A stretch of 64,000 bases of DNA from Chloroflexota bacterium (GTDB taxonomy: Bacteria; Chloroflexota; Limnocylindria; Limnocylindrales; CSP1-4): contig DAOTXE010000019.1 in the NCBI GenBank assembly GCA_034435355.1, positions 9,026 through 73,025 of the forward strand, in the 5' to 3' direction. Positions 10,671 through 34,446 of this stretch are shown here, piece after piece; positions within the stretch are counted from its first letter, which is position 1, and each line of letters starts with the position of its first letter. The position numbers and the translations under genes are program-made. The notes under the pieces are model-generated. The model worked only from the letters and a program-made list of their open reading frames with translations. It searched no databases and had not been told where the DNA came from.

Positions 10671-10689
10671 GGCTCGGCGGCTCGGCGGC

Positions 10690-13989: not shown

Positions 13990-15236
<1,247 letters not shown>

Positions 15237-15240
<4 letters not shown>

Positions 15241-16427
15241 TCTCGCCGGCGGAGGACGCTATCCGCGCAGAGATCGTCGCGCACGGTCCGATTCCGTTTG
15301 CGCGTTTCATGGCGCTCGCGCTGGGTCATCCCTCCGGTGGCTACTACGCAGGGCCACGGGCGCGACCGACTCGCCGCGGCGACTTCCTCACCGCGCCGGA
15401 GCTCCACCCGATCTTTGGCGCGGCGCTGGCACGGCAGCTGGCGGAGGCATGGAATCGTCTGGGCCGGCCCGACCCGTTCACGCTCGTCGAGTACGGGGCG
15501 GGCGCCGGGACGCTGGCCCTGGCGGTCCTCGCCGGTCTCCGCGACGATCGCTCGCCGCTCGCCGATGCCCTGGTGTATGCACCGATCGAGCTGAACACAC
15601 ACCGCCTGACCGAGCTGCACGAGCGGGCGGCGGCGACCGGCCTGCCCGTCGTCGCGGCGCCCGTGGCGCCGCCCGGAGCCGCGCCGGCGCCGGCTCCGGT
15701 CCAGGGTGCCGTGCTGGCCAACGAGTTCCTCGATGCGCTCCCCGTCCACGCGGTCGAGATCCGGGGCGGCGAGCCCCGTGAAGTCCACGTCGAGGTCGCG
15801 GGCGACGGCGCCCTCGTCGAGATCCTCATGCCTGCGTCCACTCCTGCGATCGCCGTCCGGCTCGACGCGCTCGCCGCGTCCGGCGTCACGTTCGCGGAAG
15901 GACAGCGGGCGGAGCTCTGCCTCGCGCTCGACGGCTGGGTCGCCGAAGTGGCGCTGTCCCTCGCGGCGGGGATCGTGCTCGTGATCGACTACGGCGCGCC
16001 GGCGCCCGAGCTCTACGGCCCGCGACGCTGCGCCGGCTCGCTGATGACGTACCGCGGCCACGTCGCCGACGGCTCGCCCGACGCGCCATACCGCGACGTC
16101 GGCGAGCGTGACATCACGGCCCACGTCGACACCACGACGCTGGAGCGGCTCCTGGCTGCGGCCGGCTTCGACGTCCTCGGAGACACGACCCAGGCCGAGC
16201 TGCTGGCGGGCTGCGGGCTGGACGACCTCCTCGAACGCGAACGCTGTCGATCGAGCGACGCGGCCTCGGCGCTGCTCCTGCGGAGCGCGGTCATGCGGCT
16301 GCTGGACCCGCGCCACCTCGGCGGCTTCCGGGCGGTGCTCGCGGGACGCGGGATGCCGGCCGGGCCGCCGCTTCGCGGCCTTGCCTGGCGGATGCCGGCC
16401 GGACGACCGGCGCCCCCGATGCGCTGA
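15237..16427 (+). CDS. class I SAM-dependent methyltransferase, MidA/NDUFAF7 (DUF185, COG1565) family
   Basis: IPFARFMALALGHPSGGYYA...GDFLTAPELHPIFGAALARQLAEAW...LVEYGAGAGTLALAVL...ANEFLDALPVH matches the MidA family. GTG overlaps the upstream stop (GTGA). Confidence 0.75.
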
Positions 16428-16659: not shown

Positions 16660-17016
16660 ATGGAAGGGATCTGGTACGTCGTCGGGTTTGTCGTGGCCGG
16701 CGTCTCGTTCGTGTTCCTGACGATCGGGCTGTCGTGGCTGATCAGCCACCGCACTCGCGGGAGCCGGGGTAAGGGCCTCCCCTACGAGAGCGGGATCGAC
16801 ACTTACGGGGACACCCACGGGCGCTTCGGCGTCTCGTACTACCTGTACGCCCTCCTCTTCGTCGCCTTCGACATCGAGGTGATCTTCATCTTCCTGTGGG
16901 CGCTGGTGATCCGGGACGCGATCCCGGGCATCCTGAGCTCGATGTTCCTGTTCGTCGGGATCCTCCTCCTGGGCCTTGCCTACGCGTGGCGGAAAGGCGT
17001 GCTCACGTGGCGCTGA
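16660..17016 (+). CDS. nuoA: NADH-quinone oxidoreductase subunit A
   Basis: ...[51 protein letters not shown]. Confidence 0.9.
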
Positions 17017-17750
17017 CGGAGCGCGGCAAGCCGAACCGTGACCTGGCCGTTTCGGCCGCACCGGCCCGGGACCTGCCCGCGCCGGCGGCGTCGCCGGACG
17101 ACGCGCTGGTCGAGGCGATCGTCGTGCCGAATGCACTCTGGCGGCCCGAGGACCCGCTCGGATACGGCGGCGGCGCGCTGCGCGACGACCCGCGCCTCGA
17201 GATGCGGCGCTACGACGAGTCCGGCGAGGGCCGCCGCGACGATGCGCGCTGGGCTGCGCTGGACATCGTGCCCACCAAGGCCGACTACGTGCTGGACCTG
17301 ATCCGCATGAACAGCCTCTGGCCGCTGCTGTCGGGCCTGGCCTGTTGCGCGATCGAGATGATGTCGACCGCGACCAGCCGCCACGACATCGATCGCTGGG
17401 GGATGTTCCCGTTCCGCGCTTCCCCGCGCCAGGCGGACGTGCTCATCGTGGCGGGCACGCTCACGACGAAGATGGCCGAGCCGCTGGTCCGGCTGTGGGC
17501 AGAGATGCCCGAGCCGAAGTGGTGCGTCGCGATGGGCGACTGCACCTGCTCGGGCGGGCGCTACAAGCGCAGCTACAGCACGGTCCAGGGGATCGACCGG
17601 GTCCTCCCGGTGGACGTCTACGTCCCCGGCTGCCCGCCCCGCCCGGAGGGCCTGATCTACGGGATGATGAAGCTCCAGCAGCTCGTCAAGGAGCGCCGCG
17701 GCCACTGGGCAGAGCGCGCGATCGGCCCCACCGTCCCGGACCAGGTCTGA
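17007..17750 (+). CDS. nuoB: NADH-quinone oxidoreductase subunit B (N2 cluster)
   Basis: [17 protein letters not shown]...[10 protein letters not shown]...VPGCPPRPE, so the N2 ligand motifs are intact. The start GTG 17007 has a GGAAAGG RBS and overlaps the nuoA stop. An alternative ATG at 17202 gives a 182-aa product. Confidence 0.85.
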
Positions 17751-17753
17751 CCG

Positions 17754-18305
17754 ATGGATCGTGCCTTCCGGGTCCGCCTCGAGCGAACGTTCGGGGACCT
17801 CCTGACCGGGCCCGTCCGCCAGCGCCACGACGAGACCGAGATGCGCGTCCGCCCCGGCGACGTCCCGGCCGTGATGCGGACCCTCCACGACGACCCAACG
17901 CTCCGCTTCGAATACCTGGGCGACCTCGCCGGCGTGGACACCGGCATGGACTTCCAGGTCGTCTACCACCTCTGGAGCGTCGTGACCCCGGACTGGCTCA
18001 GGGTGATCGCCGATGGGATCCCGCGCGACCAGCCGCGCATCCCCTCGATCACGTTCCTGTGGAAGGGCGCCGAGTGGATGGAGCGCGAGGCGTACGACAT
18101 GTTCGGCCTCGTTTTCGAGGGCAATCGCGACCTGCGCCGGATCTACCTCCCGGACGACTTCGTGAGCTTCCCGCTCCGCAAGGACTTCCACCTCCCGGAC
18201 GACGCGTCGCGCTCGCCCGGCGGCGGGGTGCGCCCGATGGAGGGCGCCGCCACGCCGGCCGACGCCGCGGAGCGCACCGTGCGCCGCACGGCCACGGCCA
18301 GGTAG
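17754..18305 (+). CDS. nuoC: NADH-quinone oxidoreductase subunit C (30 kDa)
   Basis: FEYLGDLAGVD...VVYHLWS...ITFLWKGAEWMEREAYDMFGLVFEGN. Confidence 0.9.
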   Translation: MDRAFRVRLERTFGDLLTGPVRQRHDETEMRVRPGDVPAVMRTLHDDPTLRFEYLGDLAGVDTGMDFQVVYHLWSVVTPDWLRVIADGIPRDQPRIPSITFLWKGAEWMEREAYDMFGLVFEGNRDLRRIYLPDDFVSFPLRKDFHLPDDASRSPGGGVRPMEGAATPADAAERTVRRTATAR

Positions 18306-18319
18306 CGCAGGGGACGCCG

Positions 18320-19534
18320 ATGACAACCCCGACTCGGCCCAGCCTCGACGATCCGGCCCTGGCCATCCCGCTCGACCATCCCGGGATCTTCGAGCCGATC
18401 CCCGTGGCTCGCACCGAGCGCCAGCAGGAGTTCTACGACCTCCGCGACGGCGAGATGCTCCTGAACATGGGACCGCAGCACCCGTCCACGCACGGCGTCC
18501 TGCGCGTGGTCCTCAAGATCTCGGGCGAGCAGGTGGTGGACCTGGACCCGGTCCTTGGCTACCTCCACCGCGGGGTCGAGAAGATCGCCGAGAACTCCGA
18601 CTTCCACCACATCATCAGCCAGCTCGACCCGCTCGAGTACATCAGCTCCCTCTTCTGCGAGTGGAGCCCGGTGATGTCCTTCGAGAAGCTCCTCGACGTC
18701 CAGGTCCCGCGACGGGCGGAGTACATCCGGGTCCTGACGGCCGAGCTGAACCGGATCGCCAGCCACATGCTCTTCCTGGGCTGGTACGCCCTGGACCTGG
18801 GCGGGATCACGCCGATCCTGTGGAGCTTCGCCGAGCGCGACGAGATCATGGAGATGCTCGCCGCGGTCACCGGCGCGAAGCTCCTCTTCAACTACTTCCG
18901 GATCGGTGGCGTCAACGGCGACCTGAACCACGAGTTCATGAGCCGCCTCGGCGACTGGATGAGCCGGGCGGGAACCCAGCTAGAGGCCGGGATGGGCCTC
19001 CTCAACGAGAACGAGATCTTCGTCCGGCGCGCGCGCGGGCTCGGCGTCCTCGACCGCGAGACCGCCCTCCGCATGTGCACCACGGGGCCGAACCTGCGGG
19101 CGTCCGGGGTCCCCTTCGACATCCGGCGCGCGCACCCGTACAGCGTCTACCCGGAGCTGGAGTTCGACATCCCGACCCGCAACGAGGGCGACTCCCTCGC
19201 GCGCTACCTGCTCCGCATGGACGAGGTCCGCCAGAGCCTCCGGATCATCGACCAGTGCCTGCACCAGATGCCCGACGGTCCCGTCATGGCGCGCCAGCCG
19301 CGCCTCCTGCGACCGCGCCCGGGCCGGGCCTACAGCGCGGTCGAGGGACCCCGCGGGCAGTACGCCTGCTACGCCATCAGCGACGGGACCGACCAGCCGT
19401 TCCGCCTGCGGATCCACGACCCGAGCTTCCTGCACCTCCAGCTGGTGGGGCTCCTCATGCCGGGCAACCTGATCGCCGACACGATGGCGATCATGGCGTC
19501 GCTGGACCCGGTCATGGGCGGCGTGGACAAGTGA
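18320..19534 (+). CDS. nuoD: NADH-quinone oxidoreductase subunit D (49 kDa)
   Basis: NMGPQHPSTHGVLRVVLKISGEQVVDLDPVLGYLHRGVEKIAE...RIHDPSFLHLQ. Confidence 0.95.
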   Translation: MTTPTRPSLDDPALAIPLDHPGIFEPIPVARTERQQEFYDLRDGEMLLNMGPQHPSTHGVLRVVLKISGEQVVDLDPVLGYLHRGVEKIAENSDFHHIISQLDPLEYISSLFCEWSPVMSFEKLLDVQVPRRAEYIRVLTAELNRIASHMLFLGWYALDLGGITPILWSFAERDEIMEMLAAVTGAKLLFNYFRIGGVNGDLNHEFMSRLGDWMSRAGTQLEAGMGLLNENEIFVRRARGLGVLDRETALRMCTTGPNLRASGVPFDIRRAHPYSVYPELEFDIPTRNEGDSLARYLLRMDEVRQSLRIIDQCLHQMPDGPVMARQPRLLRPRPGRAYSAVEGPRGQYACYAISDGTDQPFRLRIHDPSFLHLQLVGLLMPGNLIADTMAIMASLDPVMGGVDK

Positions 19535-19544
19535 GGGCCGCGGC

Positions 19545-20882
19545 GTGGTGAGCGCCTACTGGAGCCGCCTCTCGCTGGGCTCGCGGGCGTTCCTCGTGGT
19601 CGTCCCGGCCCTGCTCGTGGTGGGCGGGCTCCTCGCCGTCGCCGTCGCCCTGTTCCTGGGGCCGGTGCTGGACTTCATCAACGCGAACCTGCCCCTGGGC
19701 CGCTTCGTGCTGGCGGCCACGGCGCTCATCGTGGTCACGATCCCGATCGCGTTCCTGATCATCTTCATGGAGCTGAAGGTGATCGCCGCGATGAACCTGC
19801 GGGTCGGGCCCGACCGCGTCGGGCCGTACGGCACGTTCATGTCCGTGGTCCACGGCCTCAAGGTCCTCTCCAAGGAGGACTTCACGCCGCTGGGCGTCGA
19901 CGTCCCGATCTTCACCCTGGCGCCGATCGTCGTGTTCGCCTCGATCCCGCTGACGCTCCTGGTGATCCCGTTTGCGCCCGGGCTGTACGGCCAGGACTTC
20001 AACCTTGCCCTGCTCTACTTCTTCGCGATCGGCGGGATGAGCGTGGTGGGCCTGATGATGGCCGGCTGGGCGAGCTTCAACAAGTACAGCCTGCTCGGCG
20101 CGCTGCGGGCCGCCGCCCAGGCGATCAGCTACGAGCTCCCCCTGACGCTCTCCGTGGTCGGGATCATCATCCTGGCCGGGACGATGAGCCTGAACTCCAT
20201 CGTCGGCCAGCAGGCGGGATCGCTCTTCGACTGGAACATCTGGAAGCAGCCGCTCGGCTTCATCATCTTCTTCATCGCTGCCACGGCCGAGGCGAACCGG
20301 ACGCCGCTGGACATGACCGAGGCGGACCAGGAGCTCGTCGCCGGCTTCGCCACCGAGTATTCCGGCATGCGCTTCGGCTTCTTCTTCTTCGCCGAGTACG
20401 TCAACGTGTTCGTCGTCTCGGCGCTCACCACGGTCCTCTTCTTCGGCGGCTGGAACGCCCCGTTCAACTGGCCGTGGCCCGTCGCGATCAGCCTGGACCC
20501 GGGTGGCCTCGGGCTCGGCCTCATCTTCCTGATCGTCCTCGCCCCCGTCCTGGGCACGATCGTCCTGGGCCTGCCGTTCTGGCTCCTGTCGAGCCGGGTG
20601 AGCACGCTGCGGGCGCTGGTGGCCGGCTTCGTCCTGTTCAACCTGCTGATCATCGGGGCATTTCTGGGCTGGGCCTTCATCAGTGCCGCCTGGGTCTCGG
20701 GCCTGGTCTGGATGATGCTCAAGACCTTCGTCTTCGTCTTCATCTTCGTCCAGATGCGCGGGACGCTTCCGCGCGTGCGCGTCGACCAGCTGATGAGCTT
20801 CGCCTGGAAGTGGCTCCTGCCGGCAGCGCTCCTGAACATCTTCGTGACGGCGACCGCCGTCGTGATCGTGGCGAACCGGTGA
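19545..20882 (+). CDS. nuoH: NADH-quinone oxidoreductase subunit H (ND1)
   Basis: MELKVIAAMNLRVGPDRVGPYG...YELPLTLSVVG...EYSGMRFGFFFFAEY. GTG start with a GAGGG RBS. Confidence 0.95.
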   Translation: MVSAYWSRLSLGSRAFLVVVPALLVVGGLLAVAVALFLGPVLDFINANLPLGRFVLAATALIVVTIPIAFLIIFMELKVIAAMNLRVGPDRVGPYGTFMSVVHGLKVLSKEDFTPLGVDVPIFTLAPIVVFASIPLTLLVIPFAPGLYGQDFNLALLYFFAIGGMSVVGLMMAGWASFNKYSLLGALRAAAQAISYELPLTLSVVGIIILAGTMSLNSIVGQQAGSLFDWNIWKQPLGFIIFFIAATAEANRTPLDMTEADQELVAGFATEYSGMRFGFFFFAEYVNVFVVSALTTVLFFGGWNAPFNWPWPVAISLDPGGLGLGLIFLIVLAPVLGTIVLGLPFWLLSSRVSTLRALVAGFVLFNLLIIGAFLGWAFISAAWVSGLVWMMLKTFVFVFIFVQMRGTLPRVRVDQLMSFAWKWLLPAALLNIFVTATAVVIVANR

Positions 20883-20892
20883 GGGTGCGGCG

Positions 20893-21726
20893 ATGAGCTT
20901 CGTGCCCGGGATGGGGATCCTCAGGGGGATGGCGCTGACCCTGCGGCGCTTCTTCGCACCCAAGGTGACGATCCGCTACCCGGAGGTTCCGGCGGACATC
21001 GCGGTGAAGTACCGCGGCCGTCTGCAGCTGCTCTACGACGAGCACGGCACGCTCAAGTGCGAGACCTGCTTCCAGTGCGCCCAGGCGTGCCCCATCGAGT
21101 GCATCGACATGGGAGGAAGCGATACGAAGGGCCGCTACGCCGTCCACTGGGGCGCCTCGGAGACCTACGGCGAGCGACGGGAGGAGGCAGCCCTCCGGCG
21201 CTCCGGCCGCGAGGTGCCGGACCCGACCTACACCCACTTCGAGGCGATCGACGTCGCCGCGGTGGACCGGATCCTCGAGAACCACGAGTACGACCCGCAC
21301 CGGATGCTCTCGATCCTGGAGGCGATCCAGGCCGAGTTCGGCCACCTTCCCGTGGCGGCGCTCAAGCAGGTGAGCTTCACCACCGGCTCGTGGTACGCGA
21401 TGATCTACGGCACCGCCACCTACTACCGGCACTTCCGGTTCGAGAAGCCCGTCGAGCAGGTCGCGGTCTGTCGCTGCACGGCCTGCCTCATGCATGGCGG
21501 CGGGCGACTCGCGGACGGGATCGCGGACGGCCTCCGGACGGGGCTCGGGCGGGTCACGCCGGACGGCCGGATCCAGCTGGCCTGGCTCCCGACCCACCCC
21601 GCCGGCGCCGCCGCGCCCCTCGTCGCGCTCGACGGCGAGCCACAGCCGGAGGTGACGCCGGCCAACGCCACCGCGTGGGCCCAGGCGCTCGCCGGGGAGC
21701 ACCCCGCGACCCGGACGATCCACTGA
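20893..21726 (+). CDS. fused NuoI-like (N-terminal, single CxxCxxCxxxCP motif) / NuoE-like (C-terminal, thioredoxin-like, partial Cys set) protein - degenerate Fe-S subunits of the nuo operon
   Basis: N-terminus ILRGMALTLRRFFAPKVTIRYPEVP...YRGRLQL...CETCFQCAQACPIECI is NuoI/Nqo9-like, but the second cluster motif is replaced by ASETYGERREEAAL. C-terminus LSILEAIQAEFGHLPVAALKQVSFTTGSWYAMIYGTATYYRHFRFEK...VAVCRCTACLMHGGGRLADGI is NuoE/Nqo2-like and lacks the distal Cys pair. Confidence 0.8.
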   Translation: MSFVPGMGILRGMALTLRRFFAPKVTIRYPEVPADIAVKYRGRLQLLYDEHGTLKCETCFQCAQACPIECIDMGGSDTKGRYAVHWGASETYGERREEAALRRSGREVPDPTYTHFEAIDVAAVDRILENHEYDPHRMLSILEAIQAEFGHLPVAALKQVSFTTGSWYAMIYGTATYYRHFRFEKPVEQVAVCRCTACLMHGGGRLADGIADGLRTGLGRVTPDGRIQLAWLPTHPAGAAAPLVALDGEPQPEVTPANATAWAQALAGEHPATRTIH

Positions 21727-21730
21727 GCCG

Positions 21731-23080
21731 ATGACCACGATCCTCCCGACCCCCGCCGCCTGGCCGCACCCGCTCCTCGGGGATGCCCCGTCGGCGGACC
21801 CGGCCGACCTGGATGCCGCGGTTCGCGCCGGGGCCTTCGCGGGGCTCGCTCGCGCGCTCAACGACCTGGGCCCCACCCTGAGCACCGTCGCGATCGCCGA
21901 ATCCGGCCTCCGGGGACGGGGCGGCGCCGGTTACCCGGCCGCCGACAAGTGGCGCGCCGTCGCCGCGGCGGCGGAGGGCATCCGCTACGCGGTGGCGAAC
22001 GGCTACGAGGCCGACCCGGCCGGGGGAACCAACCATCACCTGATGACCGCCCGTCCGTACGCGATCGTGGAGGGCCTCGCGATCGCCGCGCTCGCGGTCG
22101 GCGCGGAGGAGGCGATCCTGGCGGTCCGCGCGGAGTACGCCGACGCGGTGGCCGCGCTCGAGCTCGCGGTTGCCGAGGCGGGCGAGGCCGGGTACCTCGG
22201 CGAGGACGTGCTCGGCTCGGGGCGCACGCTCCGGATGACGGTCCGGGCCGTGCAGGGCGCCTACATGCTGGGCGAGGAGACGGTCCTTCTCAAGGCGCTC
22301 GAGGGCCGGCGCGGGCAGCCCGAACAGCGGCCCCCGTACCCGTCCGAGCGCGGGCTGTGGGGCCGGCCGACGCTCGTCCACAACGTCGCGACGCTCGCGG
22401 CGATTCCCTGGATCATGGTCCACGGCGCGGACGCGTTCCGCTCGACCGGCGATCCGGGCGCGCCGGGCACGGTCCTCGTCTCGGTCAGCGGGGCCGTGGC
22501 GACCCCCGGCATCCTGGAGGTGCCGACGGGGACGCCGCTCGCGGACATCGTCGCGCTCGCAGGCGGCGTCGCGGGAGGGCGCCCGCTCAAGGCGATCCTG
22601 GTCGGCGGGCCGTCGGGCGGGCTCCTCCCGGCCGACCTCGCGGCCACGCCCTACACGTTCGGGGCGCTCCGGGCGGCCGGCGCGCATGTCGGGTCGGGAT
22701 CGGTCGTCGTGGCGGACGACCGGAGCTGCGTCCTCGACCTCGCCCGCCTGCTGACCCGCTATTGCGCGGACGAGGCGTGCGGCAAGACGATCCCCTGCCG
22801 GGTCGGGCTGCGCCGCCTCTCCGAGATCGGCGAGCGCATGGTCGCTGGCTTCGCCCGGCCGACCGACCCGCAGCTCCTGGCCGACCTCGCAGCGGACATC
22901 GCGGGCAGCGCGTTGTGCGACCACGAGCGGCTGGCCACGGGCCCGCTCGCGACCGCGATGCGATACTTCGGGGCCGAGGTCGACGCCCACATCCTGCGGG
23001 GCGTCTGCCCGGCCGGCGTCTGTGCCCCCATCGGGACCGCCGTCGCCGCCGGTCCCGCAACTACTGCGCACGGAGGATAG
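21731..23080 (+). CDS. nuoF: NuoF-like (51 kDa NADH/FMN-binding) subunit with altered N3 cluster motif
   Basis: GLRGRGGAGYPAADKW and GAYMLGEETVLLKALEGRRGQPEQRPPYPSERGLWGRPTLVHNVATL are present. The N3 motif reads EACGKTIPCRVG, with C-x2-T-x2-C in place of C-x2-C-x2-C. Confidence 0.85.
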   Translation: MTTILPTPAAWPHPLLGDAPSADPADLDAAVRAGAFAGLARALNDLGPTLSTVAIAESGLRGRGGAGYPAADKWRAVAAAAEGIRYAVANGYEADPAGGTNHHLMTARPYAIVEGLAIAALAVGAEEAILAVRAEYADAVAALELAVAEAGEAGYLGEDVLGSGRTLRMTVRAVQGAYMLGEETVLLKALEGRRGQPEQRPPYPSERGLWGRPTLVHNVATLAAIPWIMVHGADAFRSTGDPGAPGTVLVSVSGAVATPGILEVPTGTPLADIVALAGGVAGGRPLKAILVGGPSGGLLPADLAATPYTFGALRAAGAHVGSGSVVVADDRSCVLDLARLLTRYCADEACGKTIPCRVGLRRLSEIGERMVAGFARPTDPQLLADLAADIAGSALCDHERLATGPLATAMRYFGAEVDAHILRGVCPAGVCAPIGTAVAAGPATTAHGG

Positions 23081-23091
23081 GCACGACCGCG

Positions 23092-25731
23092 ATGGCCGAC
23101 CTCGTCTCCCGGCCCCCCGACCTCCTCCCCGCCGCGCGGCCGCAGCCGATGGTCGATTCGCTCGCCGAGCGGCTGCTCCGGACCCAGTCGCCGCAGCGCC
23201 CGCAGTCCACCCCGCTGATCCGCCTGGAGGTGGACGGGCGGGTCGTCGAGGGTCGCGAGGGGCAGACGATCCTCGAGGTCTGCCGGGACAACGGGATCGA
23301 GATCCCAACCCTCTGCTACGAGCCCAAGCTGCCCGGCTTCGGGGCCTGTCGGATGTGTGTGGTCGAGGTGGCGGGCGAGGAGCACCCGCCGATCTCGTGC
23401 TCGCGGCTGGCCGAGGCGGGGATGGTGGTCCAGACCCAGACCGAGGCGGTCCGTCGCCTGCGGCGCACGAACCTGGAGCTGATCTTCTCCGACCACAACG
23501 CCTACTGCCTGCCGCCGTGCCAGAACAAGTGCCCGAGCCACATAGACATTCCGGGCTTTCTCAAGGCGAATGCGGAGGGCGAGTTCCGCGAGTCGGCCCG
23601 GATCTTCAAGCGGACCATCCCGTTCCCCTCGATCCTCGGCCGGGTCTGCCCGGCGCCGTGCGAGGAGCACTGCCGCCGCGACGAGGTGGACGAGGCGATC
23701 GCGATCCGGGACAGCCACCGCTACGCCGGCGACCAGGTGCTCCTCGCGATGCGCGAGGAGGGCGTCGATCCGCCCCTCCCGTTCGAGCTCCAGCCGAAGT
23801 CGGGCAAGCGGGTGGCGGTCATCGGCTCGGGCCCGGCCGGCGCGTCGGCCGCCTACTACCTCCTGATCGCCGGCCACGAGGTGACGATCTACGAGCGCGA
23901 CGAGGCGCCCGGGGGGATGCTCCGCTACGGCATCCCGGAGTACCGGCTGCCGAAGGAGCGGGTCCTCGACCCCGAGTACGAGAGCATCACGCGGCTCGGC
24001 GGGCGCTTCATCTGCAACCAGGCGCTCGGGCGCGACTTCAGCCTGGACGACCTCCAGAACCAGGGCTACGACGCGGTCGTCGTCGCGATCGGCTGCTACG
24101 ACACGAACAAGCTCGGGATCCCGGGGGAGGACGCGGACGGCGTCATCGACGGCCTCGAGTACCTCAAGGTCGCCACGCTCGGCCTGCTCTACCCGGGTCA
24201 CGCGGGGAAGCGGGTGGTCGTCGTCGGGGGCGGCTTCACGTCGATGGACTGCTCGCGCACGTCGGTGCGCCAGGGTGCGTCGGAGGTGACGCTCGTCTAC
24301 CGCCGCGACATGAAGGACATGCCGGCCTCGGGCGAGGTCCATGAGGCGATCGAGGAAGGCGTCACGACGATCTTCCAGGCCGGCCCGACCCGCGTCATCG
24401 CCGACGATGCGGGCAGGGTGACCGGCGTGGAGTTCATCCGGATGCAGCTCGGTGCGCCCGACGCCTCCGGCCGGCGCCGCCCGGAGCCCGCCCCCGGCAC
24501 CGAGTTCGTGATCGCGTGCGACCGGGTCCTGCTCGCCATCGGCCAGGGGCCGGACCTGAGCTGGATCGGCGCCGGCTCCGACGGCGTCGAGGCCACCCGG
24601 AACCGGCGCCTGCGGGCCGACGCGGTCACCTTCGTGACGCCGCGGCCGGGCGTCTTCGGGACGGGCGACGTCCGCAACGGCGCGCAGACGGTGGTCCAGG
24701 CAGTCGCCGACGGACGCCGCGCCTCGTACGCCGTCGACGCGTTTCTGAAGGGCCTCGACCTCGGGGAGATCAGGACCCGCCAGACGCTGGCCGAGCCGCA
24801 GCCGGAGTTCCTCAGCATCGTGCCGTTCACCTCCGAGGTGAAGGCGCCCCGCCATCGGCTGCGGAGCATGCCGGCCGAGGAGCGCCGCACAAGCTACGTG
24901 GAGTACGAGATCCCGTACACCCCGAGCGAGGCCGTCGCGGAATCGACGCGCTGCCTCCAGTGCACCTGCGAGGCGATCGGATTCTGCGACCTGCGTCGGC
25001 TGGGGATCGAGTACGGGACCACCCTGCGGACACTGGAGCCGCAGAACAACCAGGGGGCCGGCTTCCGGAGCGTGACCGAGAACCGCTTCACGGGAGCCAA
25101 CCACGACTACGTCCGCGACGACAGCCACGCCTTCATCCTCCGCGAGCCGTCGCGCTGCATCGACTGCGGCCGCTGCGCGAACGTGTGCGCCGAGGTCGTC
25201 GGGGCGGCCTGCTACGACTTCATGCGGATCGGCTTCGACACGCTCGTCACCACGCCGCTCGACATGAGCCTCAACGACACGCCGTGCGTCTCGTGCGGTC
25301 GCTGCGCCGAGACGTGCCCCACCGGCGCGCTCATGCCCAAGCCCCGGATCCTCGAGAAGTACGAGGTGGACGAGAGCCGCTGCATCCTGTGCGGGATCTG
25401 CGTCGACGCCTGCCCCTACGATGCGCTCCGCTGCGGACCCGACTTCGAGCTGGCCCACGTCAGCCGCGAGGAGCCCATGATCGACCTGATCGCGATCGCC
25501 GCGGTGGACCGCGAGACCGAGATGACCTACGTCCACAGGGAGCGCGACTGGCTGGAGCGGGCGATCGCCTCGGGGCGCGACGTCGGGCCGCGTCAACTGC
25601 CCGTGCTTCCGGCCTCGCTCGCCGAGCGGGGCGGCGGGCACGGCGGGGGTCGCGCGAGCGACCCGGACAACGGCCACAATGGCACCGGCGCGGCCGGCGG
25701 CGCCTTCCCGGAGCACGGACGCAACCGGTAG
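23092..25731 (+). CDS. chimeric Fe-S flavoprotein: NuoG N-terminal-like [2Fe-2S] domain + GltD-type NAD(P)H/FAD oxidoreductase + C-terminal 2x[4Fe-4S] ferredoxin domain (occupies nuoG position)
   Basis: [19 protein letters not shown]...[16 protein letters not shown] matches NuoG N1b. [25 protein letters not shown]...[57 protein letters not shown] and [25 protein letters not shown] match GltD. The C-terminus carries [23 protein letters not shown] and [12 protein letters not shown]. Confidence 0.85.
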
Positions 25732-25799
25732 ACCCAGCGCGAGGGCGGGCGGAAAGCCGCCCGGTCGACGCGCAGCGCAGGCTGGAGGGAGAGGAACAG

Positions 25800-26333
25800 G
25801 TGGCCATACCGGATACCATCCCGGTCCTCGGGATCAGCTGGAGCGACGTGCTCTTCCTGGTCCTTGCGGCCGTGATGCTCGGGTCCGCCTTCCTCGTGGT
25901 GACCCTTCGCGACATCATCCGCTGCGGGCTGGCGATGATCGTGGCCTTCGGGGCGCTCGCCGGGATCTACGTGCTGCTCGGCGCGCCGCTGGTGGCCGCC
26001 GCGCAGGTGCTCGTCTACATCGGCGCGATCGCCGTCCTGATCCTCTTCGCGGTCATGCTGACCCAGGCGAAGAACGCGCCCGTCCGGCTCGTCTTCCAGG
26101 CGCAGGCGTTCCCCGCCGCGATCGCCGCCATCGTGCTGGCAGTGCTGATCGCGCTCACGGTAAGCGCGACGGACTGGGGCGCGGCGGCGAAGCGGCTCGC
26201 GACGGCGACGGACGCGCTGGCCCGCCTGCTGTTCACGTCGTACGTGCTGCCGTTCGAGGTCGTGAGCGTGCTCCTGCTGATGGCCGTGATCGGGGGCATC
26301 TTCCTGGCGAAGCGCGAGGGCCGGGACGCGTGA
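25800..26333 (+). CDS. nuoJ: NADH-quinone oxidoreductase subunit J
   Basis: A hydrophobic ND6-like protein. GTG start with a GGAGGGAGAGG RBS. Confidence 0.9.
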
Positions 26334-26641
26334 GCCAGAGCCTCGACGCCTACCTCAGCGTGTCCGGGATCCTGTTCTCGATCGGCATGTTCGGGTTCCT
26401 GGCCCGGCGCAACGCGATCAGCATGCTGATGTCCATCGAGCTGATGCTGAACGCGGTGAACCTGACGATCGTCGCCTTCGGGGCCTTCATTCCCGCCCTC
26501 AACGGAACCGCCTCCATCATCGCCCTCGTCGTGATGGCGGTCGCCGCGGCCGAGGCCACGGTCGGCCTCGCGATCGTCATGGCCATCTACCGGAACCGCC
26601 GCACACCGCTGGTCGACGAGTACGACAGCATGCGCCAGTAG
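26330..26641 (+). CDS. nuoK: NADH-quinone oxidoreductase subunit K
   Basis: [24 protein letters not shown]...[20 protein letters not shown] overlap with nuoJ. Confidence 0.9.
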
Positions 26642-26663
26642 CCGCGGGAATCGGGCCGCCTCC

Positions 26664-28676
<2,013 letters not shown>

Positions 28677-28687
28677 GCAGGCAGACC

Positions 28688-30238
28688 ATGGACGCCACGT
28701 CCTTCCCGATCCTCAGCGTGATCATCTTCCTGCCCCTCGTGGGGGCGGTGGTGGTCGGGCTCATTCCGCGGCGCAACCTGGCCGCGATCCGCGGGACCGC
28801 GCTGCTCTTCGCCCTCGCGACGTGGGTCGTCAGCCTGTGGCTGGTCCTCGGCTTCCTGCCGGGACGCCAGCTGGTGGCATCCGCGGCGGGCTCGTTCGAG
28901 TTCGTGCAGACGATCGACTGGATCCCGGTCTTCGGGATCCAGTACAAGGTCGGCGCCGACGGCCTCTCGGTGGCGCTCGTAGTCCTGACCACGACACTGT
29001 CGTGGATCTCGATCCTGGCCAGCTTCTCGCCGATCAAGGAGCGGGTGAAGGAGTACATGATCTCCTTCCTCGTCCTCGAGGTCGGGATGCTGGGCGTGTT
29101 CCTGGCCCTGGACCTGTTCCTGTTCTACATCTTCTGGGAGGTGGTCCTCGTCCCGATGTACCTGATCATCGGGATCTGGGGCGGCGCGAACCGGATCTAC
29201 GCGACGATCAAGTTCGTCCTCTACACGCTCGTCGGGTCGCTCCTGATGCTGGTGGCGATCCTCGCCACGGCGTTCACCTACCAGCACGCAACCGGGTCGT
29301 GGGTCGGTGCGTTCGACCTGGAGAAGCTCGCCGGAGCCGGCTTCGACGGCACGTTCCAGGTCTTCGCCTTCGCCGCGTTCGCGCTGGCCTTCGCGATCAA
29401 GGTCCCGATGTTCCCCTTCCACACCTGGCTGCCGGACGCGCACGTCGAGGCACCGACGGCCGGCTCGGTGATCCTGGCAGGCGTGCTGCTCAAGCTCGGC
29501 GCGTACGGCTTCATCCGGTTCGCCATCCCGCTCTTCCCGCACGGCGCCCACGTGTTCGCGCCGCTCATCATCGCCCTGTCGCTCATCGCGATCATCTACG
29601 GCGCGATCGTGGCCATGGTCCAGCCCGACCTCAAGAAGCTCGTCGCCTACAGCTCCGTGAGCCACATGGGATTCGTGACCCTGGGCATCTTCATCTTCCA
29701 GGCCCAGGGCCTCCAGGGCGCGATCCTCCAGATGGTCAACCACGGCATCATCACGGGCGCCCTCTTCCTGCTCGTCGGCGTCATCTACGAGCGAACCCAC
29801 GACCGGACGATCGCGAAGATGGGCGGCCTGGGCGCGGTGACGCCGGTCTACTCGGCCGCCCTGGGGTTCTTCGTGTTCGCGTCGGTCGGCCTGCCCGGCC
29901 TGGCCGGGTTCGTCGGCGAGTTCCTCGTCTTCCAGGGCGCGTTCGCATTCAACCCGTGGGTCGGCGTGTCCGCCGCGTTCGTCATGATCTTCGCGGCCGG
30001 GTACCTGCTCTGGATGCTCCAGCGCGTGTGCTTCGGCCAGGTTTCGGAGTTCCTGTCGAACCTCGGTCACCACCTGACCGACATGCGCCCCACGGAGATC
30101 CTGACGCTCGCCCCGCTGGGCGCCCTGACGGTGGTCCTGGGCCTCTATCCCGCCCTCGTCCTGGACCTCATCGCGGGCCCGGTCAGGGCGGTCCTGGCCG
30201 CGGTCGACCCATCGGTCGCGATGGCTGTCGGCCGCTGA
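28688..30238 (+). CDS. nuoM: NADH-quinone oxidoreductase subunit M
   Basis: FYIFWEVVLVPMYLIIGIWGG...FPFHTWLPDAHVEAPTAGSVILAGVLLKLG. Confidence 0.9.
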   Translation: MDATSFPILSVIIFLPLVGAVVVGLIPRRNLAAIRGTALLFALATWVVSLWLVLGFLPGRQLVASAAGSFEFVQTIDWIPVFGIQYKVGADGLSVALVVLTTTLSWISILASFSPIKERVKEYMISFLVLEVGMLGVFLALDLFLFYIFWEVVLVPMYLIIGIWGGANRIYATIKFVLYTLVGSLLMLVAILATAFTYQHATGSWVGAFDLEKLAGAGFDGTFQVFAFAAFALAFAIKVPMFPFHTWLPDAHVEAPTAGSVILAGVLLKLGAYGFIRFAIPLFPHGAHVFAPLIIALSLIAIIYGAIVAMVQPDLKKLVAYSSVSHMGFVTLGIFIFQAQGLQGAILQMVNHGIITGALFLLVGVIYERTHDRTIAKMGGLGAVTPVYSAALGFFVFASVGLPGLAGFVGEFLVFQGAFAFNPWVGVSAAFVMIFAAGYLLWMLQRVCFGQVSEFLSNLGHHLTDMRPTEILTLAPLGALTVVLGLYPALVLDLIAGPVRAVLAAVDPSVAMAVGR

Positions 30239-30254
30239 CGGGAGCTGCCTGACG

Positions 30255-31736
30255 ATGACCTGGTCCGATTTCGCCACCGTCGCCCCCTTCGCGGCCGCCG
30301 TGGCCGTGGCGGCGCTCGTCGTCGTGGCCGACATCGTGCGGCCCGGAAACCGGCACCTGGCGCTGGGTGTTGCCCTGGCGGGCCTCGTCGGCGTCGGTGC
30401 GCTCACCCTGTGGACCGGCCAGTCGCCGGGGACCGCCTTCGGCGGCATGTACAAGGTCGACAACCTGACGACGTTCCTCGACACGATCTTCGTCGCGATC
30501 GCGGCGATCACCTGCCTCTTCGCGCCCGACTACCTCGAGCCGCGCGGGCTTCCGGTCGCGGAGTTCGCCGCCATCCTCGTGTTCGCGCTGAGCGGCGCGA
30601 TGCTGGTGTCCGCGTCCGCGGACCTCATCGTCCTGTTCGTCGGTCTCGAGCTCATGGTGATCCCGGGCTACCTGCTCGCCGGGTATCACAAGCGCGACGC
30701 GCTCTCCACCGAGGGCGCGATCAAGTACTTCCTGCTCGGCTCGTTCTCGAGCGCGATCTTCCTCTTCGGGCTCGCCTACATCTGGGGCCTGACCGGCTCC
30801 ACCCGGATCGCCGACGTGGCGGCCCGGATCGGCGCGGTCATGGCCGGCCAGGCACCGCTCTCCCCCGGTCTGGCGATGGGCCTGGCCTTCCTCACGACCG
30901 GGGTCGCGTTCAAGATGGCCGCGGTCCCGTTCCACTACTGGACGCCCGACGCGTACCAGGGCTCGCCGACGCCGGTGACCGGCTACCTGTCGGTGGGCCC
31001 GAAGGTGGGGGCGTTCGCGGTGGTGCTGCGGGTCTTCGCCGAGGCCCTCCTCCCGCTTCGCCAGGAGTGGGTGATCGTCTTCTTCGTCCTCGCGGCGCTG
31101 ACCATGACGCTTGGCAACCTCGTGGCGCTCACGCAGGACAACGTCAAGCGGATGCTCGCCTACTCGTCGATCGCCCACACCGGGTACATGCTGGTGGGCC
31201 TCGCGGCGTACGCGGCAGGGGTGCTGCAGGGCCTCGAGGGCCTCCTCTTCTACGGCGCCGCCTACGCGTTCATGAACCTGGGGGCGTTCGCCGTGATCGC
31301 CGCCCTCCAGAAGCGCCCCGGGGTCAGCAGCCGGCTGGAGACGTTCGCGGGGCTCGGGCGGCGTGAGCCGGCGCTCGGTCTCCTGATGGTCCTCTTCCTG
31401 CTCTCCCTGACCGGGATCCCACCGACGGCCGGCTTCTTCGCCAAGGCGTACGTGATCCTCGCCGCCGTGCAGGCCGGGGGATGGCTCACGGCCCTCGCCG
31501 TCATCGCCGTCCTCAACGCGGCCGCGGCCGCGTTCTACTACCTGCGGGTCATCGTCTACATGTACATGCGCGATCCGGCGGGCGAGCCGGCCCCCGTGGG
31601 CCACGGCGCGCTGCTCCGCCTGGGGCTCGCCATCACGGCAGTCATGACGGTGGTCCTGGGCCTCTTCCCGGGGCTCATCCTGACGAGCGTCTCGTCGGCG
31701 GCGCAGGCAATCGGGGTCGCTGTCGCCATCCATTAG
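30255..31736 (+). CDS. nuoN: NADH-quinone oxidoreductase subunit N
   Basis: VGLELMVIPGYLLAGY...AVPFHYWTPDAYQGSPTPVTGYLS. Confidence 0.9.
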   Translation: MTWSDFATVAPFAAAVAVAALVVVADIVRPGNRHLALGVALAGLVGVGALTLWTGQSPGTAFGGMYKVDNLTTFLDTIFVAIAAITCLFAPDYLEPRGLPVAEFAAILVFALSGAMLVSASADLIVLFVGLELMVIPGYLLAGYHKRDALSTEGAIKYFLLGSFSSAIFLFGLAYIWGLTGSTRIADVAARIGAVMAGQAPLSPGLAMGLAFLTTGVAFKMAAVPFHYWTPDAYQGSPTPVTGYLSVGPKVGAFAVVLRVFAEALLPLRQEWVIVFFVLAALTMTLGNLVALTQDNVKRMLAYSSIAHTGYMLVGLAAYAAGVLQGLEGLLFYGAAYAFMNLGAFAVIAALQKRPGVSSRLETFAGLGRREPALGLLMVLFLLSLTGIPPTAGFFAKAYVILAAVQAGGWLTALAVIAVLNAAAAAFYYLRVIVYMYMRDPAGEPAPVGHGALLRLGLAITAVMTVVLGLFPGLILTSVSSAAQAIGVAVAIH

Positions 31737-31770: not shown

Positions 31771-32718
31771 TCAGCGCCCTGCGCGGTCCTCCGCCTCCAG
31801 GGCCCGGGCGAGGGCCCGCAGCACGGCCGCGGTCGACGCCGGCTCGGGCAGGATCAAGTCCGCGGCAGCCAGCAGCTCGGGAGGCACCTCGCGGGCCCCG
31901 CGGACACCCAGCAGGAGGCTGGCCGCCAGGCGTCCCTCGGCGCGCTCGCGCGCCACGACCTCGAAGGCCTCGGCGTCGGCCCGGTCGTCACCGATGACGA
32001 GCGCGGCAGTCGACCGGTGCCGGCGCAGCAGGCGGGTCACGGCCTCGCCCTTCGCCCCGGCCTCCTCCGGGCGCATCTCCACGATCCGGCGTCCCTCGAC
32101 CCTTCGGAAGCGCGGGCCACGGAGGCTGGCCGGGAGCGCGGCTGCGGCGGCGTCGAGGGCGGCCAGGATCCGGGCGCGCGCGGCGGGGGCGTCGGCGGCG
32201 GCTCGGAAGTGGAATGCCACGGACGGCCCCTTCGGCTCGACGTAGAGCCACGCCGCGTCGCCGAGCATCCGCTCGACCTCGTCGCCGAGGCGCCGGGCAG
32301 TCGCGTGGTGGCCGGCGAGGCGCGGGTCATGAGCGACGACGAGGCGCTCCGCGGCGACCCCGGCGGGCAGGTCGCCGCCCTGGCTCCCGTGGTCGCCGAG
32401 GTAGGTCAGCCCGCCCACCCGGACGCGGCCGGCCACGTCCAGGGCGGTGCGGCCCGAGAGGATCGCGAGTGCGAGGCGATCCGGCCGCCGGCGAGCGGCC
32501 CGGGCGAGGCGCCTGAGCGCGTGGCGCGCGGCCGGCAGGATCGTCGGCGCGAGCGGGTCCCCGGAGATCGGCGCCAGCGTCCCATCGAAGTCGCACACGA
32601 CGAGGAGCCCGCCGCGCGTGTCGGCAAGCGCTCGGGCCGCCTCCATGGCCTGCTCCAGCGAGTCGGCCCGGGTTTCGCCGGTAACGCGGTCGGGGCGGCG
32701 TCCGCGCGCGATCGCCAC
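31771..32718 (-). CDS. otsB: HAD-IIB hydrolase, trehalose-6-phosphate phosphatase-like
   Basis: LLVVCDFDGTLAPIS...VIGDDRADAEAF (DxDGT and GDDxxD motifs). Confidence 0.6.
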   Translation of the reverse strand: MAIARGRRPDRVTGETRADSLEQAMEAARALADTRGGLLVVCDFDGTLAPISGDPLAPTILPAARHALRRLARAARRRPDRLALAILSGRTALDVAGRVRVGGLTYLGDHGSQGGDLPAGVAAERLVVAHDPRLAGHHATARRLGDEVERMLGDAAWLYVEPKGPSVAFHFRAAADAPAARARILAALDAAAAALPASLRGPRFRRVEGRRIVEMRPEEAGAKGEAVTRLLRRHRSTAALVIGDDRADAEAFEVVARERAEGRLAASLLLGVRGAREVPPELLAAADLILPEPASTAAVLRALARALEAEDRAGR

Positions 32719-32719
32719 G

Positions 32720-33397
32720 TTACGGCGTGACCGTCACGCCGGGCAGGATCTCCTGGAGGCCACTCGCCATGACGTCGGGCCCGATCCCGCCGAGCGCGGC
32801 GTCGCGCACGTTCCCTTGCGCGTCGATGAAGTAGTGGAGCGGCAGCACGGCCGCGTCCCAGGCCCGGGCACGCGAGCCGTCCGCGTCGAGGCCGACCGGG
32901 AAGGCCACGTTCAGCGACGAGATGAACGGCGCGACGACCTCCTCGCCCTCGCGGACGTGGATCGCGATGACCACCAGGCCGGTGTCCGCATAACGCGCCG
33001 CGAACGTGTTCATGACCGGGTACTCATCACGGCAGGGAGGGCAGTACGTGCCCGTGAAGACCAGCCAGACCGGCTTGCCGCGGAGCGCGGCAAGGTCGAT
33101 CGTGCCCCCGCCGACCTGCGGCGCGGTGAGCAGCGGGGCAGGCTTGCCGACGAGCGGGAAGGGCGACACCGACCCGCTCGATGCCGGCGCGGGTGACGCG
33201 CCGCCTGCACCCGGAGCCGCGGACGCGGGGGCGGTCGCGGACGGCGAACCGGGCAACGGCGCGGCCTGGGATGCCGGCGCGCCGGGCGTGACGCGGACGC
33301 CCGGCGCCGGCGTGAGCGCGACGACAGCGACACCGATGCCGACGGCCGCGCCCAACCCCACGGCCAACCCGATCACGACCGCGATGAAGCTCCGCAT
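32720..33397 (-). CDS. TlpA/ResA-like thiol-disulfide oxidoreductase (membrane-anchored thioredoxin)
   Basis: N-terminal TM helix, a Pro/Ala/Ser linker, and VWLVFTGTYCPPCRDEYPVM (CPPC motif). Confidence 0.8.
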   Translation of the reverse strand: MRSFIAVVIGLAVGLGAAVGIGVAVVALTPAPGVRVTPGAPASQAAPLPGSPSATAPASAAPGAGGASPAPASSGSVSPFPLVGKPAPLLTAPQVGGGTIDLAALRGKPVWLVFTGTYCPPCRDEYPVMNTFAARYADTGLVVIAIHVREGEEVVAPFISSLNVAFPVGLDADGSRARAWDAAVLPLHYFIDAQGNVRDAALGGIGPDVMASGLQEILPGVTVTP

Positions 33398-33538
33398 CAG
33401 GAAGGAGCGTAGCGCGTGGGGTGGTGGCCCGCCCGCCAGCCCGGCGGGAGCGGCCGGTCACCCGAAGGCCGTGCATGGAGACCCCACGTCCTGGGCGCCC
33501 GACGAACTGCAAGGGACCCTGCGTGTGCCGCTGGTAGC

Positions 33539-34267: not shown

Positions 34268-34446
34268 GAGCGACGCGCTCCGCGGTCACCAGCGGGTGCA
34301 GGCCCAGGCGCCGGGCAACCGCCCGGGTCAGCTCCGCCGGGTTCTGGTCCATCTCGGCGAGCACCTCGAGGCCGGCGAACGACCGGGGGCCGCCTTCGCC
34401 CCAGGTCTCGATCCTGAGCCCGATCGCGGCCTCGTTCCCAGGCTCA

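Follow-up and report, generated by a model that had tools for sequence, protein, structure and literature searches.

A putative NAD(P)H:quinone oxidoreductase operon of Limnocylindria with an Nfn/Stn-like input module and a divided NuoI

Introduction

From which donor, and through which subunits, does a complex I receive its electrons when its operon carries no stand-alone nuoE, no NuoG bearing a molybdopterin-like body and no NuoI in a single open reading frame (ORF)? Complex I is generally regarded as specific for reduced nicotinamide adenine dinucleotide (NADH), with a fixed core subunit composition. The question is raised by a 64,000-nucleotide stretch, called the window below, of a Chloroflexota bacterium (assembly GCA_034435355.1, contig DAOTXE010000019.1, positions 9,026 to 73,025). 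The organism belongs to Limnocylindria, a class frequent in soil, peat and freshwater metagenomes, which carries this version of complex I. Thirteen closely packed genes on the + strand (16660-31736) form a single operon with the order nuoA-nuoB-nuoC-nuoD-nuoH-X-F'-G'-nuoJ-nuoK-nuoL-nuoM-nuoN, where X carries a NuoE-like domain, F' is NuoF-like and G' is a NuoG::GltD subunit.

The window has a G+C content of 72%, and the genes were called from a plot of G+C at third codon positions (GC3) together with ORF translations and a Pfam scan. Intergenic distances within the operon are -10 to 69 nt and in-frame GC3 is 0.93-0.97 throughout each of its ORFs. The frame plot and Pfam bear out the gene order given in the original prediction, which had been made from the letters of this stretch. 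That prediction also held that nuoE, the NuoG body and a nuoI with two cluster motifs are absent. The ORFs and Pfam matches of the operon agree so far as single genes are concerned, but the second NuoI motif is present, at the C-terminus of G'.

By its sequence, NuoI is split, not missing. We consider it fairly likely that the product of the operon is a functional proton pump of the complex I type, an NAD(P)H:quinone oxidoreductase whose input cassette, of the NfnABC/StnABC type, lies inside the nuoI gene of an 11-subunit-type operon. Neither the position of the cassette inside nuoI nor the homology of X, F' and G' as a set to NfnABC/StnABC had been part of the original prediction.

The two halves of NuoI

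The three genes between nuoH and nuoJ, with the domains of X and G', are as follows (aa, amino acids):

20893-21726, + strand: X, 277 aa; NuoI-like N-terminus followed by PF01257 (E 3e-20)
20893-21150, + strand: NuoI N-terminal half, X residues 1-86; first CxxCxxCxxxCP motif, with C56, C59, C62, C66 and C70
21151-21240, + strand: X linker, residues 87-116; charged, G..E.YGERREE.ALRR.GR.VPD
21241-21726, + strand: X thioredoxin-fold domain of the NuoE/BfuC kind, residues 117-277; PF01257
21731-23080, + strand: F', 449 aa; PF01512, SLBB and PF10589
23092-25731, + strand: G', 879 aa; Fer2_4, Fer4_20, Pyr_redox_2 and Fer4 domains
23215-23451, + strand: G' [2Fe-2S] domain of the NuoG/BfuA type, residues 42-120; C75, C86, C89 and C103, all invariant; PF13510 (E 2e-19)
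23494-24771, + strand: G' GltD/NfnB-like domain, residues 135-560; PF14691 and PF07992; Fer4_20 cluster motifs, FAD fold GSGPAG, NADPH fold GGGFTSMD
24934-25326, + strand: G' NuoG-like Fe-S core, residues 615-745; CxxCxCx5C (C621-C632) and ferredoxin-type motifs C689-C699 and C732-C742
25345-25491, + strand: NuoI C-terminal half, G' residues 752-800; YEVDESRC764...C774 PYDAL..PDFELA
25492-25731, + strand: G' C-terminal tail; conserved helix at about residues 796-826, then a variable Gly-rich end

No single polypeptide carries both CxxCxxCxxxCP motifs of NuoI: the first spans C56-C66 of X and the second C764-C774 of G'. The NuoI profile of NCBIfam (TIGR01971, 121 positions) is matched by X residues 12-76 over positions 1-64 with 47.7 bits and by G' residues 752-797 over positions 71-116 with 53.3 bits. 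When the two segments are concatenated, the match runs unbroken over positions 1-116 with 98.9 bits (E 1e-28). A chimera made of X residues 1-86 and the G' half likewise aligns contiguously with residues 22-131 of E. coli NuoI (E 4e-22), and with plant TYKY and other solved chains, while X alone matches NuoI chains of the PDB over their first half only (X 9-81, E 1e-9). NuoI is thus interrupted in the hairpin that joins its two cluster motifs.

Both motifs are strictly conserved. The pattern KCETCFQCAQACP[IV]EC in X is invariant in 29 sequences, and C764, C767, C770 and C774 of G' are invariant among its orthologues. The original prediction had counted two 4Fe-4S motifs at the end of G'; there are three of the form CxxCxxCxxxC, the last of which (C764-C774 plus 'PDFELA') is the second NuoI motif. 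The simplest reading of this arrangement is that a three-gene cassette lies within the nuoI gene of an ABCDH-I-JKLMN operon, to which it is fused in frame on either side. X, the NuoE/BfuC-like subunit, thereby carries the N-terminal half of NuoI, and G' has the C-terminal half fused to its end. The two halves would then reassemble in trans into the two-cluster N6a/N6b ferredoxin fold on NuoH, NuoB and NuoD.

The input module

The best solved relatives of F', G' and the C-terminal domain of X are the matching chains of NfnABC and StnABC, which come ahead of any complex I chain. The structures are 9bov and 9bp5 for C. saccharolyticus NfnABC and 8oh5 for S. ovata StnABC. The C-terminal domain of X matches 9bov_C (E 2e-16) and 8oh5_A (E 1.5e-15), and F' matches residues 112-527 of the 584 of 9bov_B (E 3e-101) as well as chain B of 8oh5 (E 3e-99). 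Residues 42-774 of G' align with residues 3-699 of 9bov_A (E 1e-163), and the corresponding match to 8oh5_C has E 9e-141. As a set, X, F' and G' are homologous to NfnABC/StnABC, their closest relatives, rather than to NuoEFG. Both NfnABC and StnABC perform flavin-based electron bifurcation and are members of the Bfu family (PMC10482914, PMC11829005, PMC9304861).

In an AlphaFold2 (AF2) model of X, the NuoE-like domain is confident, with a predicted local distance difference test (pLDDT) score of 75-95, and a Foldseek search with this part ranks NfnC, HydC and StnA at the top. Canonical NuoE binds its [2Fe-2S] cluster through four cysteines (Cx4C...Cx3C), of which the second pair is absent from X. 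The site is instead VC193-x-C195-T-x-C198 ... H235, where the three Cys and the His are invariant and H235 occupies the exact position of the first Cys of the second canonical pair. The linker that joins this domain to the NuoI half has many invariant columns and no counterpart in Thermoleophilia-type homologues, and it is specific to the lineage. Second, lone copies of X, extra to the operon copy, are found outside the nuo operons of two Limnocylindrales metagenome-assembled genomes (MAGs), at 10001-10867 of locus L060 (SPRUCE 394) and at 5784-6584 of L069 (GcC5-39). Every Cys and the His are kept in them.

F' retains the core of a NuoF-like protein, with the Gly-rich loop for flavin mononucleotide (FMN), GEET, the SLBB domain and the N3/B1 cluster site, and stops right after CPAGVC. 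It scores 346 bits against the NCBIfam nuoF profile, the cut-off of which is 559. The cluster site is C350-G-K-T353-I-P-C356 ... C396-DHER, that is ADEACGKTIPCR[IV]G ... LCDHER. C350, T353, C356, C396, H398 and E399 are invariant, and D397 and R400 are found in 56 and 60 of 62 sequences, respectively. GLRGRGGAG[FY]P is kept in most of these 62, and GEET, K73-W74 and RGQPEQ.PP are invariant or nearly so. In a flavobicluster, FMN is accompanied by B1, a [4Fe-4S] cluster with four Cys, and by C1, a [2Fe-2S] cluster with four Cys. The corresponding sites here are Cys3+Thr and Cys3+His, both invariant, and the changes in X and F' are fixed ligand replacements, not erosion.

BfuB is characterised by the sites B2-B5 (a thioredoxin-like [2Fe-2S] and two [4Fe-4S] with a Zn linker). 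In F' both the N-terminal thioredoxin-like [2Fe-2S] domain (B2) and the C-terminal 2x[4Fe-4S] ferredoxin-binding domain (B3/B4) are lacking. Domains of the B2 and B3/B4 type separate bifurcating BfuB from non-bifurcating NuoF-type proteins (PMC9304861, PMC11829005), which is why bifurcation is not expected of this enzyme. An NADPH-dependent coupled reduction of NAD+ and ferredoxin is likewise made less probable by the lack of a ferredoxin-binding domain.

G' has the architecture of a BfuA of the Nfn-Bfu/Stn type, with a [2Fe-2S] domain, an inserted GltD domain for flavin adenine dinucleotide (FAD) and NADPH, and ferredoxin-type clusters. Its residues 615-745 are equivalent to the NuoG-like Fe-S core of StnC/NfnA, with all Cys invariant. 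Over the whole subunit 31 of 33 Cys are invariant in 48 orthologues, and C308 and C781 alone vary. The FAD and NADPH motifs are invariant too, including the YRR signature for the 2'-phosphate (VYRR...MPA), and an invariant His209 stands at the place of StnC K170, the non-Cys ligand of the FAD-proximal cluster. These domains and motifs uphold the proposal of the original prediction that electron input was rebuilt around a GltD-type FAD/NAD(P)H flavoprotein. Its further claim of ligand losses in each protein of the Fe-S wire does not hold for G', and in X and F' the changes are invariant replacements.

NuoG profiles match G' over residues 46-144 only, and the molybdopterin-oxidoreductase-like body of NuoG is absent. 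The C-terminal Fdh-like domain of BfuA is missing as well: G' has 879 aa compared to 1172-1178 aa, and the alignment ends at about residue 700 of the solved chains. Where that domain would start, G' has a 21-residue link followed by the NuoI half.

Conservation and selection

Metagenomes frequently contain full-length homologues of X, 277 aa long, and the named ones come from MAGs of Chloroflexota or 'Candidatus Limnocylindrales'. Public labels for X are 'NADH:ubiquinone oxidoreductase subunit E' and 'formate dehydrogenase gamma', and those for G' are 'FAD-dependent oxidoreductase' and 'formate dehydrogenase major subunit'. A scan of one genome per species for X-specific peptide patterns, used as markers of the fusion, found at least 579 loci that encode them, the best 80 of which are all from Limnocylindria-type Chloroflexota.

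The survey of gene order in related genomes, which the original prediction had called for, gave a uniform result. Among the 81 loci fetched, all from Limnocylindria MAGs, the order A-B-C-D-H-X-F'-G'-J-K-L-M-N is identical in every one that is long enough. The two exceptions are L060 and L069, where X stands alone as a second copy. Of OY970306.1, a complete chromosome, the stretch around the operon was covered.

When the window was compared pairwise with seven relatives, the ratio of nonsynonymous to synonymous substitution rates (dN/dS) ranged from 0.05 to 0.35 across all 13 genes. The constraint on G' (0.08-0.17) equals that on NuoD, and F' (0.15-0.32) resembles NuoH and NuoL in this respect. 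F' is the fastest-evolving subunit, with 46-85% identity to the window sequence compared to 76-95% for G'. The operon is under purifying selection, neither degenerate nor decaying; the suggestion of a degenerate NADH-input module is contradicted by the conserved order, these ratios and the fixed substitutions.

Related operons

Distant relatives were sought among 50%-identity cluster representatives, where further NuoI-N::NuoE fusions with 27-39% identity to X were found. One family, represented by the loci L082 (10001-15165) and L083 (4337-9511), has 1201 members at E<=1e-10, one of them labelled Thermoleophilia. These two loci, with 67% G+C, contain the same type of operon with the same NuoI split, a GltD domain and the cassette between nuoH and nuoJ, and their 824-aa G also ends in a NuoI half. 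Their NuoE-like site has the canonical four Cys. Their F is a complete Bfu-type protein of 636-643 aa with the B2-B5 sites: besides canonical FMN motifs, a four-Cys B1 and CPAGxC, it carries a [2Fe-2S] domain at the N-terminus and a 2x[4Fe-4S] domain at the C-terminus. Operons of this type are candidates for a membrane-bound, quinone-linked bifurcating hybrid of Nfn and complex I.

A third architecture is found in L084 (1321-6023, 49% G+C), where a NuoI-N::NuoE fusion, a 1048-aa thioredoxin-like::NuoF::GltD protein and a 265-aa NuoG-N::NuoI-C protein are encoded between nuoH and nuoJ. Since the NuoI split occurs with a GltD domain in three architectures, the two together are a shared and older trait. 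The lineage of the window is, judging from these comparisons, a reduced derivative that has lost the parts specific to bifurcation.

Comparison with known systems

The module of the window shares with NfnABC and StnABC (also 9n5u, PMC12018979) the order of the [2Fe-2S] domain, the GltD insertion with FAD and NADPH sites and the ferredoxin-type clusters in G', and X and F' correspond to the NfnC/NfnB core. NfnABC and StnABC are soluble tetramers that perform NADPH-driven reduction of ferredoxin and NAD+, whereas the module of the window would be tethered to a membrane proton pump. In addition, F' is devoid of the B2 and B3/B4 domains, and the C1 and B1 ligands are altered.

With canonical complex I (T. 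thermophilus Nqo1-14, Mycobacterium smegmatis, E. coli) the window has in common the subunits of the Q- and P-modules, the N2 motifs, the full sequence of NuoI and folds resembling NuoE, NuoF and the NuoG N-terminus. Unlike the canonical enzyme, its NuoI consists of two halves on two other polypeptides, and the E/F/G-like genes lie between nuoH and nuoJ, not between nuoD and nuoH. G' contains a GltD FAD/NADPH domain in place of a molybdopterin-like body. The N1a-like site reads CxCxxC...H and the N3-like site is Cys3+Thr.

A predicted 14-subunit enzyme, Nuo-Bfu, in which BfuABC replaces NuoEFG within the normal gene order, was described for Deferribacteres, Proteobacteria, Planctomycetes and Nitrospirae (PMC9304861). 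NUO-2 of Nitrospina is of the Nuo-Bfu kind (PMC3578206), and Geobacter is also among the predicted carriers. Like Nuo-Bfu, the window has a complex I-like pump with a Bfu-type input module encoded in the middle of the cluster. Nuo-Bfu has a NuoG-like BfuA devoid of GltD, a separate NuoI and a predicted confurcation of NADH and ferredoxin, while the window has an Nfn-type BfuA with an NADPH site, a split NuoI, no bifurcation domains and the cassette between nuoH and nuoJ. What defines Nuo-Bfu, namely 14 genes from nuoA to nuoN with BfuABC instead of NuoEFG, a BfuA resembling NuoG and a NuoI of its own, is not found in the window. Because it lacks defining features of each, the window enzyme is placed neither in the Bfu family nor in its Nfn-Bfu or Nuo-Bfu groups.

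The 11-subunit homologues, cyanobacterial and chloroplast NDH-1 and archaeal Fpo/Fqo, have the same ABCDHIJKLMN backbone with an exchangeable input module (PMC3144371). They accept ferredoxin or F420H2 via unrelated subunits, and their NuoI, NdhI or FpoI is one polypeptide, unlike that of the window. Mbx-like operons, where a GltD-like protein replaces NuoI (Degli Esposti 2015), were considered and rejected, as their architecture is different and they have no NuoE/F/G-like genes.

The Bfu survey covers soluble Nfn-Bfu and contains no GltD, NuoI or Actinobacteria and no Nfn-type module in a nuo cluster (PMC9304861). Neither a nuo operon with a GltD-bearing subunit nor one with a divided NuoI is described in the literature searched. 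This agrees with the earlier suggestion of an undescribed variant: a complex I with an exchanged input module and two features absent from those sources, a NuoI in two parts and a GltD domain that would bind NADPH and be wired into the chain.

Proposed electron path

In Stn and Nfn, electrons pass from NADPH to the FAD of the GltD domain and through a cluster chain to the [4Fe-4S] cluster B1 and the FMN of the NuoF-like subunit; another branch, leading off to the inactive Fdh-like domain, is described there as a remnant that has no function (PMC10482914, PMC11829005). In G' the NuoI half takes the place of the Fdh-like domain, so that this dead-end branch would likely be the exit towards N2 and quinone. 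From these correspondences we infer NADPH as the physiological donor, as well as the direction of electron flow and the role of F'.

In the proposed path NADPH would transfer a hydride to the FAD in the GltD domain of G', from which electrons would move over the two GltD clusters to the NuoG-like cluster core. Their way out of this core would be the branch that leads nowhere in soluble Stn and Nfn, and it would take them to the clusters of the split NuoI (N6a/N6b), then to N2 in NuoB and finally to a quinone, probably menaquinone. Reduction of the quinone would drive proton pumping by NuoH/J/K/L/M/N. F', with its flavin site and Cys3+Thr cluster, may feed or exchange electrons with the core of G', probably still with NADH, or may act as a redox buffer. 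The FMN contacts are partly altered, and as the Gly-rich loop, GEET and K-W remain, binding of flavin and NADH by F' is plausible though uncertain. No ferredoxin-linked bifurcation is expected. Upstream of NuoI the enzyme would work in the manner of the non-bifurcating half of Nfn/Stn, and downstream of it in the manner of complex I.

Several observations weigh against this proposal. The position equivalent to D94 of Nqo1 is Tyr in 60 of the 62 F' sequences, NNVET of the canonical site is HN[VP][QA]T and variable, and the Gly-rich loop is eroded in a few members; with such changes at FMN-contact positions F' may bind neither FMN nor NADH. Conversely, two active flavin sites wired to each other would make the enzyme an uncoupled NADPH:NAD+ transhydrogenase as well, which is physiologically awkward. 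In the AF2 model of X the NuoI half is disordered, with pLDDT 30-40. This fits an isolated half-domain that would fold with its partner, and is not proof of it. The AF2 model of G' has a mean pLDDT of 46, from a 32-sequence alignment of 80-92% identity, and is unusable.

Alternative readings

The alternative that survives best, which we rate as unlikely but worth keeping in view, is an NADPH-only enzyme. G' would be the sole input, and F' with the NuoE-like part of X would be structural relics, a scaffold with off-path clusters comparable to the molybdopterin-like body of canonical NuoG. It would account for the fast evolution of F', for its changed or variable FMN contacts and for the non-canonical ligands of both clusters beside the flavin site, and it would remove the transhydrogenase short circuit. 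A mere scaffold is less easily squared with the Gly-rich loop, which is mostly kept, with the (nearly) invariant GEET, K73-W74 and RGQPEQ.PP, or with the invariant Cys3+Thr cluster region. The constraint on F' is, moreover, no weaker than that on NuoH or NuoL.

The opposite possibility, an ordinary NADH-oxidising complex I with its working site in F' and a non-catalytic or regulatory GltD insertion, seems distinctly improbable. Most hallmarks of NuoF are present in F', and large inert domains can be accommodated in complex I, the C-terminal body of NuoG being one. G' is, however, the most conserved peripheral subunit. Its FAD fold, its NADPH fold with YRR, its GltD cluster Cys and the His that aligns with the ligand K170 of StnC are all invariant, and an inert domain would not keep its nucleotide-binding residues across lineages that are 27-39% identical in X.

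We give a similarly small chance to reverse operation, where the proton-motive force would drive electrons from quinol to NADP+ and/or NAD+ and provide NADPH for biosynthesis. Complex I is reversible, Nfn/Stn modules are bidirectional (PMC10482914), and reverse electron flow via an unusual NUO was discussed (PMC3578206). Neither the operon nor its neighbourhood indicates a lithotrophic donor, however. We also know of no lithoautotrophy in Limnocylindria that would need a reverse flow making NADPH.

It is very improbable that the operon encodes two enzymes, a soluble Nfn/Stn-like transhydrogenase and an 11-subunit complex I with another donor, such as ferredoxin. 11-subunit homologues with separately encoded input modules are common (PMC3144371, PMC5736913), and the cassette as a set does resemble a soluble enzyme. 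The pump would then have no NuoI in its operon, as the sole NuoI consists of the invariant halves covalently attached to X and G', and these halves stay on the cassette proteins in three operon architectures. In addition, G' lacks the Fdh-like domain that Stn needs to assemble into a tetramer, and F' lacks the ferredoxin-binding domain. Both this reading and that of an artefact are hard to reconcile with conserved NuoI halves joined covalently to the cassette proteins.

An artefact or decaying pseudo-operon, with frameshifts that fused nuoI to nuoE and truncated nuoG, is rejected: high-GC MAG sequence is prone to frameshifts and some nanopore-derived relatives (L010, L011, L028, L063) do show broken genes, but dozens of independent assemblies, made in various studies and with various technologies, agree in the structure and lengths of these ORFs, which speaks against a frameshift hiding canonical nuoI and nuoE, and recurrence across the marker loci, purifying selection on all genes and the in-frame GC3 in practice refute both the artefact and the pseudogene.

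Implications

The NADPH-accepting reading, in which the Nfn/Stn-type module delivers electrons to the pump, brings together three unexpected properties: the best-conserved input site is of the NADPH type, the split NuoI is carried on the input module, and the closest relatives of that module are the bifurcating Nfn and Stn. If NADPH is the real donor, the anabolic nucleotide pool would be linked directly to respiration and proton pumping, and metabolic models of the organisms concerned would change. The series from the full Bfu form over the F::GltD form to the reduced form offers a natural experiment in the grafting of a module onto complex I and in the loss of bifurcation. The split NuoI offers a defined test case for the assembly of an Fe-S domain in trans.

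More tentatively, the enzyme may stand for a class of proton-pumping complex I not recognised before, one that accepts NADPH directly and is derived from an Nfn-type Bfu module spliced into nuoI, with NuoI rebuilt in trans. The L082/L083 enzymes, whose module retains all hallmarks of bifurcation, might then be proton-pumping NfnABC-complex I hybrids in the membrane that connect the quinone pool with ferredoxin, NAD(H) and NADP(H). The form found in Limnocylindria might be an aerobic, streamlined descendant, in which both clusters beside the flavin were re-ligated (Cys3+His, Cys3+Thr) with retuned potentials.

Q-module, membrane arm and neighbouring genes

The remaining genes of the operon and the gene that precedes it are as follows:

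14682-16427, + strand: NDUFAF7/MidA-like methyltransferase, directly upstream of nuoA; PF02636 (E 2e-32); start codon uncertain
16660-17016, + strand: nuoA; PF00507 (E 6e-30)
~17007-17750, + strand: nuoB; PF01058 (E 8e-28); start codon uncertain
17754-18305, + strand: nuoC; PF00329 (E 2e-38)
18320-19534, + strand: nuoD; PF00346 (E 1e-84)
19545-20882, + strand: nuoH, 445 aa; PF00146 (E 1e-102)
25800-26333, + strand: nuoJ; PF00499
26330-26641, + strand: nuoK; PF00420
26664-28676, + strand: nuoL; synteny with Proton_antipo_N/M genes in locus L001, paralogy with nuoM and nuoN
28688-30238, + strand: nuoM; synteny with locus L001, paralogy with nuoL and nuoN
30255-31736, + strand: nuoN; synteny with locus L001, paralogy with nuoL and nuoM

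All ten one-piece subunits of the Q- and P-modules (NuoA, B, C, D, H, J, K, L, M and N) are found. The translation of NuoB contains the N2 motifs, GCPP among them, and alignment with Nqo4 (chain 2fug_4) shows that the equivalents of the quinone-site His38 and Tyr87 (T. thermophilus numbering) are retained in NuoD. Together with the Pfam matches, this confirms the earlier view of an intact Q-module and membrane arm with the N2 ligands kept. A tblastn search of the 64 kb window found no second copy of nuoE, nuoF, nuoG or nuoI and no other nuo-like gene.

NuoB has an N-terminal extension of about 110 aa (17007-17340) that is specific to the lineage. NuoH is longer than usual, with 445 aa compared to 372-375 aa in L082/L083, and this addition is lineage-specific as well. 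Both might be in contact with the rebuilt peripheral arm.

A same-strand NDUFAF7/MidA-like gene lies upstream of nuoA in 63 of 64 related loci, and also at 4321-5517 of L001. NDUFAF7 is a known assembly factor of complex I, by which an Arg of NDUFS2/NuoD is methylated. The residue that it methylates in mitochondria (R84 of T. thermophilus Nqo4, 'typRmdY') is Pro in the NuoD of the window ('qldPleY').

The flanks of the operon (2862-9272, 11306-12862 and 31771-36132) encode Lon protease, ClpB, PurH, a trehalose phosphatase, an AhpC/TSA-type redoxin, a sortase-like protein and an MFS transporter. None of these flanking housekeeping genes in the window is obviously tied to NADPH metabolism. Further downstream, on the - strand, a 1747-aa ORF at 43717-48960 is coding-like, with a GC3 of 0.93.

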